A stretch of DNA of 64,000 bases from a virus (taxonomy: Duplodnaviria; Caudoviricetes). The DNA lies in the IMG/VR virus record IMGVR_UViG_3300013121_000025, positions 64,001 through 128,000 of that record. One strand, given 5' to 3'. The position numbers and the translations under genes were made by a program. The notes under the pieces were generated by a model, which worked only from the letters and a program-made list of their open reading frames with translations, was not told where the DNA came from and did not search any database. Positions 2,959-32,132 of this stretch are shown here, piece after piece; position 1 is the first letter of the stretch, and every line of letters starts with the position of its first letter.

Positions 2959-3549
2959 TTATGCACCACCAATTGCAATACCTTGATTATGACCATCGAC
3001 ACCAACATAAGTGTTATGAACTTGATATGCATGGTCAATGGAAACAGATAATGTAATCTTAACTGCTTCATTTGCTGAGTAATCGAAGGTGTCATAGTTT
3101 GCAGTTTGTACCCAGCAACCTTGAACGTTCCATGTTTCAAGAACAGCTTCATTACCATCGAGGGCTTCAATCTTTGTAGCAAACTTATAAACAGATGCTT
3201 CTGGTGCAGAGGCTAACCATGGACCTAATACACCTGTTAAGTATTGCTGTTTCTGTAATTGTTCTTGAATAACCTTAGATGCACTTCCTGTTACATCATC
3301 TTCAATAACAATTTCTAATGGTTCCCATGTGTGTTTTGAAGCAACAAATACTTTTGAATTGTAACGGTTAACTTCGACCTTTTCCCAAGAAACGTTAGGA
3401 CGTGAACATGTAACTACCTGCATCGAAACAGGAATCGAAGACGATCCACCACCGAAACCTGTAAAGGTTACACGGAAGCGATTCTTTAATTTTGGTTGTA
3501 AAATACCAGTACCAACGCCTGGAATACCGATGTCCATTATAGTGGCCAT
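2959..3549 (-). CDS. gp19: Tail tube protein (gp19-like)
   Basis: QPKLKNRFRVTF...RPNVSW...WEPLEIVIEDD...LETWNVQGCW...DYSANEAVKITLSVSIDHA; directly downstream of sheath; AGGAG RBS. Confidence 0.9.
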   Translation of the reverse strand: MATIMDIGIPGVGTGILQPKLKNRFRVTFTGFGGGSSSIPVSMQVVTCSRPNVSWEKVEVNRYNSKVFVASKHTWEPLEIVIEDDVTGSASKVIQEQLQKQQYLTGVLGPWLASAPEASVYKFATKIEALDGNEAVLETWNVQGCWVQTANYDTFDYSANEAVKITLSVSIDHAYQVHNTYVGVDGHNQGIAIGGA

Positions 3550-25314: not shown

Positions 25315-27927
25315 TTACCTAATAACAGAATATGCCTTGTGCCACCATGAAGGTATTTGACTATGCATTCTTGTATATAAGTAATTCCAAGATTCATCAA
25401 GAATATATGTGGTACCATAATCTTCTTTTGATCGAACAATACGTCCACATGCTTGTAATACTTGTATAATCGCTTGTTCTTGGTACCATTCATTTGATTC
25501 TTCCATTCTTGCTTTTACCCACTGGTCGCCAAGATAAGGATAAGGTGTTTTTACAATAATACCAAATCTTGCTAAATCATCTTTTAAATCTAATCCTTCA
25601 GTAATACTTGGAGAGATTAAAATTGCTGGGTTCGGAGTTTCAATAAATGCTTGAATGACAGAGTTTCTATCATCACCCGAATCAGGGTTATGATGAAAGA
25701 TTTGTTGATCCACCTTAAGATTTTCAACTAACCATTCTGCTATACTGAAATTAGCTGTATGAATAATTCCTTTATCTTTTTGATGTAAATTGCAAATTGT
25801 CTTTACGCCTTTTAGCATGTGCTCACGAGATTTAGTATTTTGAGGCTTATCCCAATCAACATTCATCTTCATGTGTGGAATGAATCTCACCTTTCTGTTT
25901 TCAGGTGGGAATTCAGAAACAAGTGAAATATAAGCTGCTTCTTCTTTTGGAATGCCTAATTTCTTACAATAACCCTCAAAACTTGGAATTGTAGCAGACA
26001 TAAAAAGAAACTTATCCGCATATGGACCAAGATACTTACTAAAGATTTGATCAGCGTGTAGACGTTTGAATTTGATATTCATCTTATCATGTACTAATAC
26101 CCAATCCTTATCCAAATCATGTTTAGATACAGATTCAAGAGATGTTACAGATGTTAAATGTTCACATAATTCTGTGTATTCTTTAATTAGATCAATCTCA
26201 TCAGGGGCTAAATGTTTTTGTTCAAGCAATGGAGTTACAGTTTGTTCCATTGTATTGACGGTTTGATCTAATGCAGGTAGATATGTATCTCTCACCCATT
26301 GATATGCTTTATTTTTGTCAGAAAAGTAAGTCCATTTTAGATGAACTTGTTCCATTCTAGATTTGGTAATATGGATTGCATTATATTCACATAGAATATT
26401 TTCTAAAGAATGTGCTTCATCACATATCATTAATTGTCTTCGTTCGAAGTCACCAACAACGGAGAATTGCAAGAGTGCTAATTCGTAATTAAGAACCATA
26501 TTGGAAGAAGTTGCAGCTTTTGATTTTGCATTTTTATGGTTACAATCATTGCATTTTGGTTTAATTAATCCGCCAATTGCACAATTAGTTCTTTTTGATT
26601 TGCATTCATAATTTGACTTGCCATATAAACCAATCAAGTTGGTCAAAGGATTATTATTGAAATCATTTTCATATTGCTTTTGTAATATGCGTTGTGGTGT
26701 CAATATGAATGAATTACCGAATCCGTTTGCTAAGAAGCGGGAAAATGTTATACCTATATCACTTTTCCCACTATTGTGAGTAACAGTGAAATCGTCCAAC
26801 ATATATAAATGATCTTTATCTAACAAAAAACCGTAAAAATTGTCGTTGTTAACATACTCTACAGAAAATCCTGTCACATGTGGTCGCTTCTGTTGCTGTC
26901 GAATAGAAGCTTGTTTTCTTTTTATTTTAGTTGGTATTAAATGGGTGTGCCCTGAAATACATACATCATAATATATATTTCCTTTGACCATTCTATCATA
27001 AATGGTTACAGTAAAACCTACACTGTGTGCAATAAAGGAGACATCATCACGTAATTTAGATGACTTAGTGGTATATACAAAGCAGTTTGATGAATTGTGT
27101 CCATCTGTATCGATTAAACCAGCTAAAATATTCAAGCGAGAGTCGATCGATGATATTTTGTATACATGTGGAATAAATTTATTTTCAGATGTTAAACCAT
27201 ACAACTGTAGATTTTTAAGTTTGTTGATTAAATGATTAATTCTTGGTATGGAATTGATACGCTCTGATACAAAGCGGTATGTATGGGCCTTTGATTGTGT
27301 TTTATATTTTTTAATAGTACAATCAAAATGCTCTGCTATATTGTTTAGATAAGATTCGATTTCTGGATCCATAGAAGTAACATCAATGCTGTGTGTTATT
27401 GATCCATCACCCAATAACACACCTAATAAGTACGGATCTATTGGTAATTCCAATCCTTCGGTTGTAAATGAAATTGATTGTGGTTTGTATAATTTCACAT
27501 TTCGTTTAAAGTCATTGCTTTGATTTAGATAATCATGCACAGATATATTGATAATATTTTTTCCGTCAAAACCATATCTTCTAGCTGGCGTGGTAATCAC
27601 TGATAAAATATGATCTTCATTTACATAGAATGATTTTCCTTTGATTGGTTTGATTCTGTATATTTTGCCATATCCATTGAATAATTTAAGAACACGACGT
27701 GGTGACGAATCAGGTCCCATTAATATGTCATTTGGTTGCACATCTTCAACGTTGCGTAATGTTCCATCGAACATTACGACTTTGGTCCCTTTTGTATGGC
27801 AACCAACAGGTGCATTCAATATGAAATATTTCTTATCTCTATTTGCTTCAAGCCATTCCAGTGCTTGTATTTGCGGATCTCTTGGTTGTTTTGATTTATC
27901 TGGCCAATAACTAAGTATATTTGACAT
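25315..27927 (-). CDS. dinG: DinG/XPD-family SF2 helicase containing an intein
   Basis: Q motif PRDPQ; spliced Walker A NAPVG|SGKS; four-Cys Fe-S region GKSNYEC..NC..KCNDC; ICDEAH; MSAT; EGLDL; QACGRIVRSKEDYG. Confidence 0.9.
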   Translation of the reverse strand: MSNILSYWPDKSKQPRDPQIQALEWLEANRDKKYFILNAPVGCHTKGTKVVMFDGTLRNVEDVQPNDILMGPDSSPRRVLKLFNGYGKIYRIKPIKGKSFYVNEDHILSVITTPARRYGFDGKNIINISVHDYLNQSNDFKRNVKLYKPQSISFTTEGLELPIDPYLLGVLLGDGSITHSIDVTSMDPEIESYLNNIAEHFDCTIKKYKTQSKAHTYRFVSERINSIPRINHLINKLKNLQLYGLTSENKFIPHVYKISSIDSRLNILAGLIDTDGHNSSNCFVYTTKSSKLRDDVSFIAHSVGFTVTIYDRMVKGNIYYDVCISGHTHLIPTKIKRKQASIRQQQKRPHVTGFSVEYVNNDNFYGFLLDKDHLYMLDDFTVTHNSGKSDIGITFSRFLANGFGNSFILTPQRILQKQYENDFNNNPLTNLIGLYGKSNYECKSKRTNCAIGGLIKPKCNDCNHKNAKSKAATSSNMVLNYELALLQFSVVGDFERRQLMICDEAHSLENILCEYNAIHITKSRMEQVHLKWTYFSDKNKAYQWVRDTYLPALDQTVNTMEQTVTPLLEQKHLAPDEIDLIKEYTELCEHLTSVTSLESVSKHDLDKDWVLVHDKMNIKFKRLHADQIFSKYLGPYADKFLFMSATIPSFEGYCKKLGIPKEEAAYISLVSEFPPENRKVRFIPHMKMNVDWDKPQNTKSREHMLKGVKTICNLHQKDKGIIHTANFSIAEWLVENLKVDQQIFHHNPDSGDDRNSVIQAFIETPNPAILISPSITEGLDLKDDLARFGIIVKTPYPYLGDQWVKARMEESNEWYQEQAIIQVLQACGRIVRSKEDYGTTYILDESWNYLYTRMHSQIPSWWHKAYSVIR
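26773..27801 (-). mobile_element. Class 1 intein (343 aa) with LAGLIDADG endonuclease, in DinG Walker A
   Basis: Begins CHTKGT, block B VNEDH, LLGVLLGDG and LAGLIDTDG, ends VTHN followed by Ser. Confidence 0.95.
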
Positions 27928-27956
27928 GTATATTTCTCAAAAATGATTATTCGGTG

Positions 27957-27985
27957 ATTTTACGCGATTTATCGCGTAATGTCAA
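27957..27985 (-). promoter_or_regulatory. sigma70 promoter for helicase, embedded in a palindrome
   Basis: Minus strand TTGACA-ttacgcgataaatcgcg(17)-TAAAAT, ~30 nt upstream of ATG 27927. Confidence 0.8.
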
Positions 27986-28025
27986 CCGAATCGAGTTCCT
28001 GTTGGAACTCGCGTGATTTGTGTTC

Positions 28026-28413
28026 AAAAAATGAATAATTAATATATTCATTCACTTCGTTCATTCATATATTAATTATTAGCGCTTTTAAATCCATTGA
28101 AATCCTAGAATTTGATCCCCCGTTTAGAGTAGAGTACACACACTACTCAGGGGTATGAAACGGTAACACGCCCCAGTCACTCATTATGACCATAGAGATT
28201 AGAATTAAAATTCATTTTTGAATATATCAATGGATAATGGTCTCATAAAGATAGCACCACCCGTTCACAAGGAAGATCATCTAATCCTCTTCCAAGGCAT
28301 GACGACGATATTGTGAAATCCATCACTTAATACGCAAACAACGTACCACCGCCCAACGATTCGTATCAATTATTACAGATTAGATGTGTAATAATCGAAT
28401 TGTAAAATTCATG
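28026..28413 (-). ncRNA. Candidate structured non-coding RNA / origin-associated transcript (unknown family)
   Basis: No ORF of 60 aa or more; upstream TTGACT-17-TATTTT; several stems, an H-type pseudoknot and a 9-bp long-range pairing; terminal hairpin followed by U6. Confidence 0.55.
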
Positions 28414-28419
28414 AAAATA

Positions 28420-28448
28420 AAAATACTTCGGTTTAAAACGAAAGTCAA
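28420..28448 (-). promoter_or_regulatory. sigma70-type promoter into the non-coding locus
   Basis: Minus strand TTGACT-ttcgttttaaaccgaag(17)-TATTTT. Confidence 0.55.
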
Positions 28449-28452
28449 CGAA

Positions 28453-29052
28453 TTATTTTTTACCTTTTTTAGTAAGCATTTTATTTTTTATTGTGTCTAC
28501 TTTTGATGAAATGGTTAACCATTCTTGAATGCTATCATAAGAACGTTCATTTCTGGCTTGAATAACTTTCGCTAATTTAAAGAAAACAGAAGCATCCACT
28601 ATCATAAATTCTTCATGATAGCGTAAGAAATTATTCATTTCAGCGTTTGTAATATCCATAAAATGATAAGGCAACACACAATATGTACCTTTTCTTGATG
28701 TTCTGAAAAATAATAATGGAGTTCGTTTGGAATTAATAGCATCAAATAATGCTTCACCAATCCATCCATCAAGATCAGTATCATAATCGTTTATTAATTT
28801 TCCGAGATTTGGTTTGTCACCATAATTCTTACATTCAATACTAAATCTGAACCACGATGGACAGATAATATCCGAACCGAGGGCCTTTTTTGTAGAATCT
28901 TCTAAGTTTTGATTTTTTTCGTAATTTGACAAACCCATAATAGCACCAGAACTTGGTGTACGAGCGAATTCTTCTGTTTCGAATGCTTGATTGAGCAAAT
29001 CTCTCATCTCACGTTCGAGACGATTTCCCTTTGCTTTACTTTTACTAGTCAT
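28453..29052 (-). CDS. Holliday junction resolvase (Hjc/T5 D14-like PD-(D/E)XK)
   Basis: SKAKGNRLERE...FARTPSSGA...GSDII...FSIECKNY...PLLFFR. Confidence 0.85.
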   Translation of the reverse strand: MTSKSKAKGNRLEREMRDLLNQAFETEEFARTPSSGAIMGLSNYEKNQNLEDSTKKALGSDIICPSWFRFSIECKNYGDKPNLGKLINDYDTDLDGWIGEALFDAINSKRTPLLFFRTSRKGTYCVLPYHFMDITNAEMNNFLRYHEEFMIVDASVFFKLAKVIQARNERSYDSIQEWLTISSKVDTIKNKMLTKKGKK

Positions 29053-29327: not shown

Positions 29328-32132
29328 TTATGTTTCTTTAATTTGCGAGAAACCATTACTCATTTGTACAGTGAGAATATTCTCGAAGATATTCTCCACT
29401 TCGTCTCTATGTGAGATAATATATACAGATAAGTTTTCTTGTTTTGCTTTGCGTTTGATTAATTTCGCAGCAGCTTGAATGCCTAATGCATCTAAGCCCA
29501 CATCCAACACTTCATCAAACATACAAATATTGATAGGATCATGTAATTTCTGTAACAAATCTCTAAATGCTAATGATAATGATAAGTTAACACGAGCTCT
29601 TTGTCCATTAGATAAATTACCAAAGTCGATCTCACGACCATAACTAGATATACGAGCTGTGAGTTCTGAGGTAAATTCAACTTTATGTGGCAATCCTAAT
29701 TCGTTAAGGTATTCTTTAAGTTGTTTATTAAGATATGGTAAATTCTTTTCGAGCAATACCTTTCTCACGAAAGAATCTTTTTTGGTTAAAATCTTTTGTA
29801 AGAATTTTTGATGTTCGAGTAATTTTGTCAATTCATTAATCTCATCATAATTAATAGATGGCAATGCAATACTTTCTAATTCTTTTAAAGGTTCGATGAA
29901 AGGATTTACAGCTGTTTCAAGATCTGCGAGTTTCTGTTTAGCAGAATTAACCTCTTGTTGTTTAGCTGATAAGTCTTTCATATTATCGAAATGTGCAAGC
30001 TTATATAATGCTTCTAATTCTTTTACTATTTTAGTAGATTGTTTTTCCATTATATCTACAGCAATTGAATACTCTTTAATTTTAGGAGTATTTGTTTCAA
30101 TTGCTGCTAATAATTCATTTAATTTTGTCTTCGTATCAGCATAATGTTGATGACAATATGGACACTCATGATTATTAAGTTGTTTAATTTCATTCTTCCA
30201 TTTTGTTTCGTTTGTGAGCAAAGTATTTAAATCCTTTGCGATAACATTCTTTTCTGATTTTAATTTAGTGAGTTGGTTTGTCTTTTCACTAATGGAGTTA
30301 ATGATTTCTAATTCAGCTTCGAAGTCAAAATCTTTGAATTTCTCTAAAGTATTTTGAATTGAAACGCGTTGGTTATTATTCGTATCTTGCCAAGTCTTAA
30401 TTCTATTCTTAGCAGATATTAATTGTTGTTCATGACGTTGATGTTCACCTTTAACAGCTTCTATTTTAAATTCAGCTTGTTTAATAGCTACTTGTGTATC
30501 TTTAATTTTTTCCTTAAGAACATCAGCCTTAACAGACAATTCTGTTAACCCATTTAAATGTTCCATAATTGCAGTTTGTTCAGCAGACGTTAATTCTAAA
30601 AATGGAACACGTGTAGCAGAGAATACAACAATATGAACAAACATATCATACGGAATTCCTATAATTTGTTCGATATAAGCATTAGTATTAGCTATACTAT
30701 CTCTTGTAACATCTTTATCGTTAATCCAAAGTTTAACATAGTTACCATCTTTCGCTTTTCGAGCACGTTCTATTTTAATAACATCTTCGCCTTTCTCAAA
30801 TGTTGTAGTAACAACCATGTTCTTTTTATTGATATTATTAATTAGGTTATCTTTTGAGATGTTAGATAATGCTTTATCATATGCAGCAAAAGTAAGAGCA
30901 TTAAGCAACGTTGTGTTATGAGTTACAATAAAATCATTTGTAATATATAATTTATCAGGATGATCAACTGAAATACACTGTGCTTCTTTTTTTCCTACAT
31001 ATTCAACATTAGAAATGCGTAATCCACTATTTCCGTATTGAGATATCTCATTAAGTAAACTTTTCTTTCGAGAGCATTTAACTAGATTTGTTTGATTTTT
31101 ATATCTTATAGTAATATCGTATGCTAACTTACCTGGAATTTTAATTCTGTCTTTATTATAATAAAAAGGACGTCTAATACGTACAGACGCAATACCACCT
31201 AATGATCTAACAAGATATTGTACTTGTTCAGATAATTGTTTACTAGTCGTACAAAATGAAAGTCCGTGTGTTTTTGAGACGAAACCATCAGTATCAATAA
31301 GTCCTGCAAGTAATTCTTCTTTTTGTTTAACACTAGTATTCATCATGTATATTTCAGGAATAAATTTCTCATGGGAATATACGTCTTTTAATCCTAATTC
31401 TGTTATAATTCGTGTTAAGTGTTTAAAAGACCCTTTAATTCTCCAATTTAATCCATCTTCACCACTTAACGTGGCTTGTAATGTGGTTAATTTATTATTA
31501 ATTGCATTTATTACATCATGATCTTTGTTTGTAAATGTTATACCTTTATCAGTAAAGCCACCATCTCCTAATAAACATCCTAGTAGATAAGGATCTAAGG
31601 GTAAATCAACATCAGGAACATCAGGATGTGTTACCAACGGAACGAAAATATTATACCAAGCTTTCTTTTTTTCTTTTGCTTTCGATAAAAGAGGAATAAG
31701 ATCTTTTGTGGATAATAGTTTCGATTGTCTCGATTTTCCATCTTTAACCCACATATGACTTTCTACTTTCCATAAATGCTCGGAACAAGCCTCTACATAT
31801 CTTCCATCTTGAAATGTTACTTTATAAATGTCGACTGCTCCTTGAGGATACACACCTACAACGCTACATATTTCACCTGAAGGCGTAGTTACTTTATCAT
31901 TAACTTTTATTTCTCCCATGGTTGTCCAACCTGAAGGAGTTTTAATTTTACTATCGAGAGTTAATGCTTTTCCCAATCCATTGCTCGTTACTCCAAATAC
32001 AGTACTATCTAAGTTTTCACCTAGAATTAAAGTAGTACCAATATGATCAAATGTAAAGGTGGTAGTATTATTACCATATGACATGAAATTACGTAATGTA
32101 ACTTCTTTGAATTTTATTATTTTTCCACTCAT
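29328..32132 (-). CDS. gp46: Recombination endonuclease ATPase subunit (gp46/SbcC/Rad50) containing an intein
   Basis: LRNFMSYG, Walker A NGLGK|TT, CPYC zinc hook, LSNGQRAR signature, MFDEVLD, IISH. Confidence 0.95.
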   Translation of the reverse strand: MSGKIIKFKEVTLRNFMSYGNNTTTFTFDHIGTTLILGENLDSTVFGVTSNGLGKALTLDSKIKTPSGWTTMGEIKVNDKVTTPSGEICSVVGVYPQGAVDIYKVTFQDGRYVEACSEHLWKVESHMWVKDGKSRQSKLLSTKDLIPLLSKAKEKKKAWYNIFVPLVTHPDVPDVDLPLDPYLLGCLLGDGGFTDKGITFTNKDHDVINAINNKLTTLQATLSGEDGLNWRIKGSFKHLTRIITELGLKDVYSHEKFIPEIYMMNTSVKQKEELLAGLIDTDGFVSKTHGLSFCTTSKQLSEQVQYLVRSLGGIASVRIRRPFYYNKDRIKIPGKLAYDITIRYKNQTNLVKCSRKKSLLNEISQYGNSGLRISNVEYVGKKEAQCISVDHPDKLYITNDFIVTHNTTLLNALTFAAYDKALSNISKDNLINNINKKNMVVTTTFEKGEDVIKIERARKAKDGNYVKLWINDKDVTRDSIANTNAYIEQIIGIPYDMFVHIVVFSATRVPFLELTSAEQTAIMEHLNGLTELSVKADVLKEKIKDTQVAIKQAEFKIEAVKGEHQRHEQQLISAKNRIKTWQDTNNNQRVSIQNTLEKFKDFDFEAELEIINSISEKTNQLTKLKSEKNVIAKDLNTLLTNETKWKNEIKQLNNHECPYCHQHYADTKTKLNELLAAIETNTPKIKEYSIAVDIMEKQSTKIVKELEALYKLAHFDNMKDLSAKQQEVNSAKQKLADLETAVNPFIEPLKELESIALPSINYDEINELTKLLEHQKFLQKILTKKDSFVRKVLLEKNLPYLNKQLKEYLNELGLPHKVEFTSELTARISSYGREIDFGNLSNGQRARVNLSLSLAFRDLLQKLHDPINICMFDEVLDVGLDALGIQAAAKLIKRKAKQENLSVYIISHRDEVENIFENILTVQMSNGFSQIKET
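30915..31967 (-). mobile_element. Class 3 (Ala-start, WCT) intein (351 aa) with LAGLIDADG endonuclease, in gp46 Walker A
   Basis: Begins ALTLDS; ACSEHLW (Trp), AQCISV (Cys), VTHN (Thr); Thr at +1; LLGCLLGDG and LAGLIDTDG. Confidence 0.93.

Follow-up and report, generated by a model that had tools for sequence, protein, structure and literature searches.

New classes of large folded RNAs are rare, and those whose function is known are mostly ribozymes, sensors or the cores of ribonucleoproteins (RNPs). Among the described systems nearest to the locus reported here are the replication origins of the plasmids ColE1/pMB1 and of phage T4, which prime DNA synthesis from promoter-driven R-loops; the T4 origins are not known to need an elaborate RNA fold. 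The RNAs known as ROOL and GOLLD usually lie near transfer RNA (tRNA) genes. Both are large ornate non-coding RNAs (ncRNAs) without assigned function in phages and prophages (PMC12286853). The present study concerns a stretch of 64,000 nucleotides of viral DNA, here called the window, which runs from base 64001 to base 128000 of a viral contig of 153.6 kb from IMG/VR (IMGVR_UViG_3300013121_000025; Caudoviricetes; completeness ~44%, 34% G+C). As the contig is only about 44% complete at this length, its source is a jumbo phage. Positions 27928-28452 of the window (525 bases) form its sole internal gap of at least 300 nt free of open reading frames (ORFs; cut-off at least 80 aa), as an earlier sequence-only reading of this DNA had remarked. 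On its minus strand the gap holds a conserved, highly structured RNA sequence that recurs directly upstream of a DinG/Rad3-type helicase gene in 18 phage loci.

We are highly confident that this sequence represents a genuine family of structured RNAs, and one of a new class. On balance we also think that the gap holds the gene for a stand-alone, highly structured ncRNA with which a new RNA family is founded. By comparing the locus with its relatives, with known RNA families and with the signals that surround it, we aim to establish the fold and distribution of the RNA and to weigh what its function might be.

Covariation and fold

The structure was assessed on a MAFFT alignment of seven full-length RNAs, that of the window and those of six close relatives (alignment A8), which was not fitted to any structure. 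A consensus was computed from it with RNAalifold, the pseudoknot was added by hand and the pairs were then counted, giving 75 pairs in 12 helices. In this alignment 94.0% of pair cells are paired, compared with 44-50% in controls made by sliding the 3' partners 1-3 columns, and compensatory changes are found in 35 of the 75 pairs, compared with 7-15 in the slid controls. The covariation score is 0.461 (0.10-0.14 in the controls), and none of 500 shuffles reached any of the observed measures. Across all 18 loci the 3' core behaves likewise, with 93% of cells paired (34-57% in slid controls), and compensatory changes in 13 of 16 pairs; its covariation score is 0.715 (about 0.1 in the controls). 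Pairs kept by compensatory change beyond relatedness, with controls far below, are the general mark of a conserved structured ncRNA, and covariation, the yardstick that the sequence-only reading had named for its proposed RNA, thus bears that proposal out. Folding of the single sequence is only mildly better than that of shuffles (z = -2.1), so the case rests on the covariation among relatives. The RNA is encoded by the minus strand, because its many invariant G-U pairs would be C-A oppositions on the opposite strand.

Overall the fold has about 13 helices including the pseudoknot. The conserved folded body occupies 28406-28111 (minus strand, like all features of the RNA given here) and lies within a predicted primary transcript of ~385 nt (28026-28413) that is bounded by a candidate promoter and terminator; the RNA would measure about 300-385 bases. 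At the 5' side stands hairpin P1, UCGAUUAUUAC/GUAAUAAUUGA (28398-28366), which has a partly conserved loop and compensatory changes in 9 of its 11 pairs. It is followed by a three-way junction (28353-28304) composed of P2 (GGCGGU/AUCGUC), P2a (GGUACGU/GCGUAUU, with tandem G-U) and P2b (GUGA/UCAC), in which 95-100% of cells are paired; P2 and P2b have one compensatory pair each and P2a is invariant. All seven pairs of hairpin P4 (GGAAGAG/AUCUUCC, 28293-28271) show compensatory changes, and P5 (GGGUGGUG/CAUUAUCC, 28262-28232) is 100% paired with three compensatory pairs. In relatives P5 encloses an insertion of 40-70 nt that the window does not have. Two further hairpins, P6 (UUGA/UCAA, 28230-28218) and P7 (GAAUU/AAUUC, 28213-28202), were recognized by eye from A8 and stand outside the formal pair count; 7/7 sequences have a hairpin at both places, with stems that differ.

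The conserved 3' core (28195-28111) is supported by covariation and by the matches of a covariance model, R1, described below. It consists of the motif UAUGG, the hairpins H1 (28191-28175), H2 (28174-28150) and H3 (28148-28127; compensatory changes in 4 of 6 pairs) and the tail UAAACGGGGGAU. The H2 loop CCGUUU (28163-28158) pairs with AAACGG (28125-28120) in the tail beyond H3 to form a pseudoknot that covaries and is kept in 12/12 distinct sequences, though it was never part of the covariance model. Its natural versions include CCGUUC/GAACGG (L056, L059), CCCCUU/AAGGGG (L010), CCCG(A)UUUU/AAAACGGG (L009) and CCCCC/GGGGG (L021). Within H2 a conserved C.A opposition (28170/28154 and neighbours in the window) adjoins an invariant G-U pair in 11 of the 18 members, and sites of this type are often bound by a metal ion or a protein. 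A long-range helix, P3, is tentatively predicted by RNAalifold between AUGCC (28300-28296) and GGGAU (28119-28115); both strands are invariant, so that no covariation is seen. According to this prediction the GGGAU part of the tail can pair with AUGCC and stack on the pseudoknot. We envisage a 5' domain with the three-way junction and a 3' core closed by the H2 loop-tail pairing, the G-rich tail probably docking on the 5' domain, which would give a closed globular fold; covariation establishes the helices.

Several stems proposed from the sequence by itself reappear in this fold: ATTATTACA/TGTAATAAT is P1, GGAAGA/TCTTCC is P4 and GAGTAG/CTACTC is H3. The proposed stem GACCAT/ATGGTC did not survive comparison, as the partner changes without compensation in relatives; GAGACCAU pairs with GGGUGGUG in P5, and AUGGUC belongs to H1. 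The same reading had described two crossing pairings and a run of five Gs. One of these is a true, covarying pseudoknot, and pairing of the remaining Gs with AUGCC is predicted only, with no covariation. We also considered UAUGG and YCUAAA as an 11-nt tetraloop receptor and rejected the idea, those bases being taken by H3 and the pseudoknot.

Natural variants were drawn from contigs of four public DNA runs that cover the locus only in pieces and in which no joints were seen. Single-base variants at 28336, 28354 and 28392, found in contigs of two public runs of other samples (X1, labelled activated sludge, and X2), fall in a loop, at an unpaired base and in an A-U to G-U change, so the structure is kept.

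Comparison with known RNA families

At gathering thresholds neither the whole window nor the loci of three cultured phages discussed below (L003-L005) matched any of the 4227 families of Rfam 15, a set that includes RNase P, transfer-messenger RNA (tmRNA), 6S, group I and II introns, riboswitches, small ribozymes, ROOL and GOLLD. With E values up to 5-10 allowed, the window, L003 and five other members gave only chance matches to small nucleolar RNAs, microRNAs and internal ribosome entry sites, located outside or across the element. The window and eight relatives were thus without any Rfam family match, in agreement with the sequence-only reading, which had recognized no tRNA, tmRNA, RNase P or group I signature. 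A group I intron was considered in view of the P3/P7/P8-like topology of the 3' core and was rejected, since there is no P4-P6 equivalent, no Rfam match and no surrounding gene. DNA similarity searches with positions 27800-28600 against 50,697 phage records gave no match, and literature searches found no description of the RNA.

With ARAGORN neither a tRNA nor a tmRNA was detected, whether in the window, across 34 related loci or over the full 153-kb contig. One locus, L012, has a tRNA-like sequence just upstream of its helicase gene (~3110-3290, plus strand), with an acceptor/D-arm start GCUGUUUUGGUGAAAUGG and a T arm/3' end AAAGGUUCGAUUCCUUUAAACAGCCA; an insert of ~100 nt breaks it up, and ARAGORN does not call it.

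Distribution of the family

Relatives were sought first through the helicase protein and then with a DNA pattern made of RNA motifs only; the PDDEXK nuclease alone, used as a query against viral contigs, returned none. The nearest cultured relatives by helicase (41-44% identity) are the Xanthomonas phages Xoo-sp13 and XacN1 and the Stenotrophomonas phages CM1 and RAS14, and a helicase alignment retrieved 42 IMG/VR loci. Most loci whose helicase is 39-49% identical have a gap of 200-1000 nt at the same place, and the group at 30-32% identity does not. Inspection by eye showed an 85-nt module (window 28195-28111) common to L006, L008, L009, L010 and the window, from which the covariance model R1 was built. 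R1 matches 13 further loci (E 1e-17 to 3e-4). Contigs P0001-P0009, which were fetched by helicase similarity only (50-66% identical), have their matches in the gap upstream of the helicase, and the members that they contributed are L052, L055, L060, L054, L051, L056/L057 and L059 (n=7; E 7e-17 to 3e-4).

Run on a metagenome and a viral collection, the RNA-motif pattern picked out 10 and 4 stretches, respectively, of which 13 are distinct. Model R1 recognizes six of the 13 (E 1e-17 to 1e-13), and in each of these the helicase gene follows 300-400 nt further on in the same orientation; the remaining seven, chance hits of the pattern, lack both. Because the helicase played no part in this search, the link between RNA and helicase holds independently of the search route. 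A first, stricter version of the pattern recovered only members that were already known.

The family therefore stands at 18 phage loci, the window and at least 17 relatives, carried by T4-like jumbo phages in sludge, sediment and other environmental metagenomes. In every one of the 18 the helicase gene lies directly downstream on the same strand, and the upstream neighbour changes, being a RuvC-like gene in L060. Even clades with no more than 45-66% identity between their helicases retain the 3' core. A full-length nhmmer profile matched seven relatives (E 1e-72 to 1e-90) and recognizes the window's own clade only; the other clades have the same 3' core and conserved 5' parts of their own. A second covariance model, R2, gave weak but correctly placed matches in L021, L031 and L039 (E 0.15-0.3), which suggests that these loci are further divergent members. 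The RNA is single-copy in the 153-kb contig.

Transcription signals

The RNA would be read from the minus strand from its own promoter, starting near 28413, and would end at an A/U-rich intrinsic terminator at 28080-28026. The candidate promoter, TTGACT-17-TATTTT (28448-28420, minus strand), agrees with 9/12 consensus positions and is plausible, though as a match at the level of chance. In relatives the conserved sequence UACAAUUCG is preceded at 11-16 nt by A/T-rich boxes resembling a -10, with no clearly conserved -35. At the opposite end, the 14-bp AT-rich hairpin and U6 described by the sequence-only reading are both present (28080-28034 and 28031-28026): an A/U stem (28080-28067/28047-28034, minus strand) bears the tip GAACGAAGUGA and is followed by CA and the six Us. 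Stems of 12-17 bp and unrelated sequence stand at the same position in L051, L052, L054, L056 and L059, and U runs of 4-5 follow in four of these five (L052, L054, L056, L059), L051 having only UUUCGUCU. The locus thus shows the stable stem-loop, U tract and conserved position by which intrinsic terminators are recognized, and a consensus terminator scanner missed the hairpin, whose stem is too poor in G-C pairs for it. The 45-60 nt that separate the terminator from the core are poorly conserved.

A second promoter, TTGACA-17-TAAAAT (27985-27957, minus strand), precedes the helicase gene and is the best match in the region, with 11/12 consensus positions. A sigma70-type promoter between the RNA and the helicase start is also found in most relatives inspected (L054 is unclear). 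As the helicase has its own promoter past the terminator, the RNA is a separate unit, and its synthesis would be early and distinct from that of the helicase mRNA. This delimited unit, the covarying fold in 18 loci and the lack of an Rfam match together uphold what the sequence-only reading had offered as its fallback, an independent and undescribed class of phage ncRNA.

Around the helicase promoter a perfect 9-bp inverted repeat, TTACGCGAT/ATCGCGTAA (27979-27960, minus strand), spans the spacer and the -10 and looks like an operator. In one clade (L072, L074, L075, L065) a conserved TATAAT lies only ~7 nt before the helicase ATG and there is no Shine-Dalgarno sequence, which suggests a leaderless helicase mRNA. 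A single plus-strand promoter-like site (27921-27950) overlaps the helicase start codon and looks incidental.

Gene neighbourhood

The genes around the gap are all on the minus strand, and the locus sits within a gp46/47-resolvase-helicase block of replication and recombination genes. Upstream, the gap is bordered by a PDDEXK_15 nuclease gene (28453-29052). A small minus-strand ORF separates this from the gene for a gp46-like SMC ATPase (29328-32132), for which LAGLIDADG homing-endonuclease matches, and these matches alone, indicate an intein. Downstream lies the helicase gene (25315-27927; 870 aa), with matches to Helicase_C_2, Hom_end_hint and LAGLIDADG_3 and a LAGLIDADG intein in its P-loop; a Hint/intein domain was detected besides LAGLIDADG, and the insert splits the P-loop between APVG and C. 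The helicases of the relatives L051-L060 are intein-free and 521-604 aa long. Beyond the helicase gene in minus-strand order comes a zeta-like kinase gene.

A structured RNA in cultured phages

In Xoo-sp13, XacN1 and CM1 a gap of 640-820 nt with strongly conserved blocks lies just upstream of the helicase. It contains a conserved structured RNA of ~470-520 nt on the helicase strand and directly upstream of that gene (L003:5158-5661, L004:5160-5669 and L005:5097-5679). This RNA has a 13-bp long-range helix, AAUAAACCCCCCG/CGGGGGGUUUAUU, and 25 pairs with compensatory changes among the three genomes. It shares with the window-type RNA the short motifs GUUACCG, ACGGGGGG and AAUGGU..UAUGAGU. The XacN1-type RNA has no Rfam match, an nhmmer profile built from it matched its own three genomes only, and model R2 found no match in these loci. 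The two RNAs are possibly related. A 162-nt ORF (ORF313) is annotated in XacN1 on the opposite strand across part of the RNA and is probably a spurious annotation.

Possible functions

Our preference, which we hold with limited confidence, is that the RNA works as a free folded RNA and not as a primer or leader. It would act in its folded form, most likely as a partner or regulator of the helicase or of the surrounding replication-recombination machinery, because the 3' core is kept at 45-66% helicase identity and the synteny is strict and one-sided. That the partner is specifically the helicase we consider doubtful. A more definite version of the idea, in which a DinG/XPD-type phage helicase has the RNA as its dedicated subunit or is regulated by it allosterically, the two forming an RNP outside CRISPR, strikes us as unlikely. 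The same holds for its particulars, by which a globular, pseudoknotted RNA of 250-370 nt would direct or gate the helicase on R-loops, forks or recombination intermediates while the jumbo phage replicates, with the larger XacN1-type RNA as its counterpart in cultured phages. We know of no dedicated RNA for a DinG/XPD-type helicase outside CRISPR type IV.

A number of observations weigh against a folded RNA that serves the helicase. None of the computed results addresses direct contact between the two, and the partner role is suggested by conservation and gene order. None of the public sequencing runs listed for the locus is of RNA, and transcription of the RNA, its promoter, its ends and its timing are inferred from the DNA. 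The promoter called by the sequence-only reading exists as a sequence and is at chance level as a match, 12 such matches having been found in the AT-rich region where 15 are expected. Beyond the window's own clade the sequence of the 5' domain is no longer conserved. Two loci with related helicases, L061 (50% identical) and L007 (47%), are without the RNA beside the helicase in the DNA available, which argues against an obligatory helicase cofactor. The adjacent replication genes, the AT-rich stretch and the cGNAg hairpins described below fit an origin equally well.

Folded RNA, terminator hairpin and gene, in that order on one strand, make up the standard layout of an attenuation leader, and the RNA could be a cis-acting helicase leader, either a riboswitch-like sensor or, in the manner of the put RNAs of phage HK022, an element that modifies the polymerase; as such it would gate read-through of the terminator into the helicase and later genes. 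The RNA-helicase link in 18/18 loci, with an upstream gene that varies, and the high conservation of the part nearest the terminator speak for such a leader. We find it improbable all the same: a sigma70-type promoter stands between the terminator and the helicase start, at 11/12 in the window, in most relatives and, in one clade, 7 nt before the ATG, and the helicase therefore does not depend on read-through. Furthermore, 45-60 poorly conserved nt separate the core from the terminator, the RNA, at 250-370 nt, would outsize almost every known sensor of the sort, and a search for anti-terminator pairing gave nothing above shuffled controls: in 6/7 members the terminator 5' arm pairs with the RNA body no better than shuffled arms do, and its best pairings fall at no common site. 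Shared 7-8-mers of P6 and the terminator 3' arm, tried as an anti-terminator, proved to be at the chance level for AU-rich sequence. It is equally improbable that the RNA acts in trans without any relation to the helicase, as an anti-defence decoy, a (self-cleaving) ribozyme or a self-assembling ornate RNA like ROOL and GOLLD, its position reflecting no more than inherited gene order. Its own promoter and terminator would suit such a role, as would its absence beside the helicase in L061 and L007 and the different, larger structured RNA that XacN1-type phages carry at the same position, as if the slot tolerated exchange. However, the helicase link holds over 45-66% identity and in 6/6 loci found without the helicase, although the other flank changes, and no known ribozyme family matches.

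The headline of the sequence-only reading was a primer RNA like those of ColE1 and T4. In this model the transcript would form a persistent R-loop in the AT-rich DNA past the core and, at its 3' end, prime a leading strand that runs towards the helicase gene. Once displaced, the RNA-sense strand would fold into mini-hairpins that recruit priming or helicase-loading factors (compare ColE1 ori/ssiA and T4 oriF/oriG), and the adjoining DinG-type helicase would process the R-loop; unwinding of R-loops is a known activity of the family of E. coli DinG. Nothing computed here supports this model, nor do the results refute it, and several features fit. Origins commonly adjoin their replication genes, and this locus lies inside the gp46/47-resolvase-helicase block. 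The 85 nt past the RNA core have 21% G+C compared with 34% for the window. Mini-hairpins closed as C(GNA)G are tenfold enriched on the RNA-sense strand, the one to be displaced, at 2.7 per kb in the 330 nt past the core and 0.27 per kb elsewhere in the loci; they occur in 12/18 loci, in nine of those 12 at a near-constant 48-59 nt past the core. Loops of the C(GNA)G type are specially stable as DNA, as known from data on DNA triloops. The cumulative GC and AT skews reach their minimum at ~96-98 kb of the contig (~32-34 kb of the window), about 5 kb upstream of the RNA at 92 kb. Yet the skew turn is not at the locus, and since it falls where the skew changes sign and may follow gene orientation, it is not informative on the origin. 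Within the G5 run, two bases take part in the covarying pseudoknot of the RNA, and a pairing with AUGCC is predicted for the rest; the run can thus be accounted for without a DNA anchor, although it may pair with DNA as well. The dense tertiary-type conservation (invariant junction bases, C.A beside G-U) is that of a folded functional RNA, and we know of no R-loop primer that needs it. The hairpin and U run look like a terminator that releases the RNA. Nor does the window's hairpin show the strand asymmetry that had been proposed for single-stranded DNA: with standard parameters its DNA energies are nearly equal on the two strands (-6.6 and -6.3 kcal/mol). A cGNAg hairpin also occurs in L061, which is without the RNA, so that these may perhaps be ordinary terminator tips, and no iterons were found, only self-matches being seen. 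Weighing both sides, we give an RNA-primed origin little credence.

The mini-hairpins themselves have a GAA or GCA triloop closed by C-G, often flanked by tandem G.A pairs, the window's example being the tip GAACGAAGUGA at ~28062-28052. They may be terminator tips or signals at the DNA level.

Whichever function applies, the comparative support is unusually clean, with ~13 helices and a pseudoknot, and together with the fixed genomic partner it gives a concrete experimental handle. A helicase cofactor or a structured replication initiator would be a new type of RNA-protein or RNA-DNA mechanism in phage DNA metabolism, and a free ornate RNA would extend the small group of such RNAs to lytic jumbo phages. 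The possibly related RNA in cultured Xanthomonas and Stenotrophomonas phages makes bench tests feasible.

Relation to described systems

Like RNA II of ColE1/pMB1 and the transcripts of T4 oriF and oriG, the window RNA would be transcribed from a promoter and would fold without coding for protein; it is likewise a few hundred nt long and encoded among replication functions. A G run lies towards its 3' side, AT-rich DNA comes after it, and the strand that would be displaced bears stable hairpins. It differs from them in that the G run pairs within the RNA (two bases covarying, the rest predicted) and in that the RNA ends at a terminator-like hairpin and U6. Neither an antisense regulator nor iterons were seen, and the computed results do not indicate a hybrid or priming.

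The preQ1-II riboswitch, an H-type pseudoknot aptamer, has the topology of the 3' core, namely a stem, a pairing of its loop with the 3' tail and an embedded hairpin, and such an aptamer likewise stands just upstream of a terminator. Unlike that riboswitch, the window RNA carries 200-280 nt more of conserved structure upstream, is followed by a promoter before the gene, has no Rfam match and yielded no expression-platform pairing. The omega-RNAs of IscB/TnpB, group II intron RNA and the phi29 packaging RNA (pRNA) offer another parallel, as structured RNAs of 150-400 nt kept beside one protein gene across divergence. Here the partner would be a DinG/XPD-type helicase in place of a nuclease, a reverse transcriptase or a packaging ATPase, and the locus has no guide-like variable segment and no mobile-element ends.

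ROOL and GOLLD provide the remaining comparison. The window RNA matches neither of their Rfam models and, in contrast to them, is tied to a helicase gene on a contig in which no tRNA was detected. In other respects it resembles these ornate phage and prophage RNAs, which likewise had no assigned biochemical role when they were found: it is several hundred nt long, has many helices, a pseudoknot and strong covariation, and is carried by phages.

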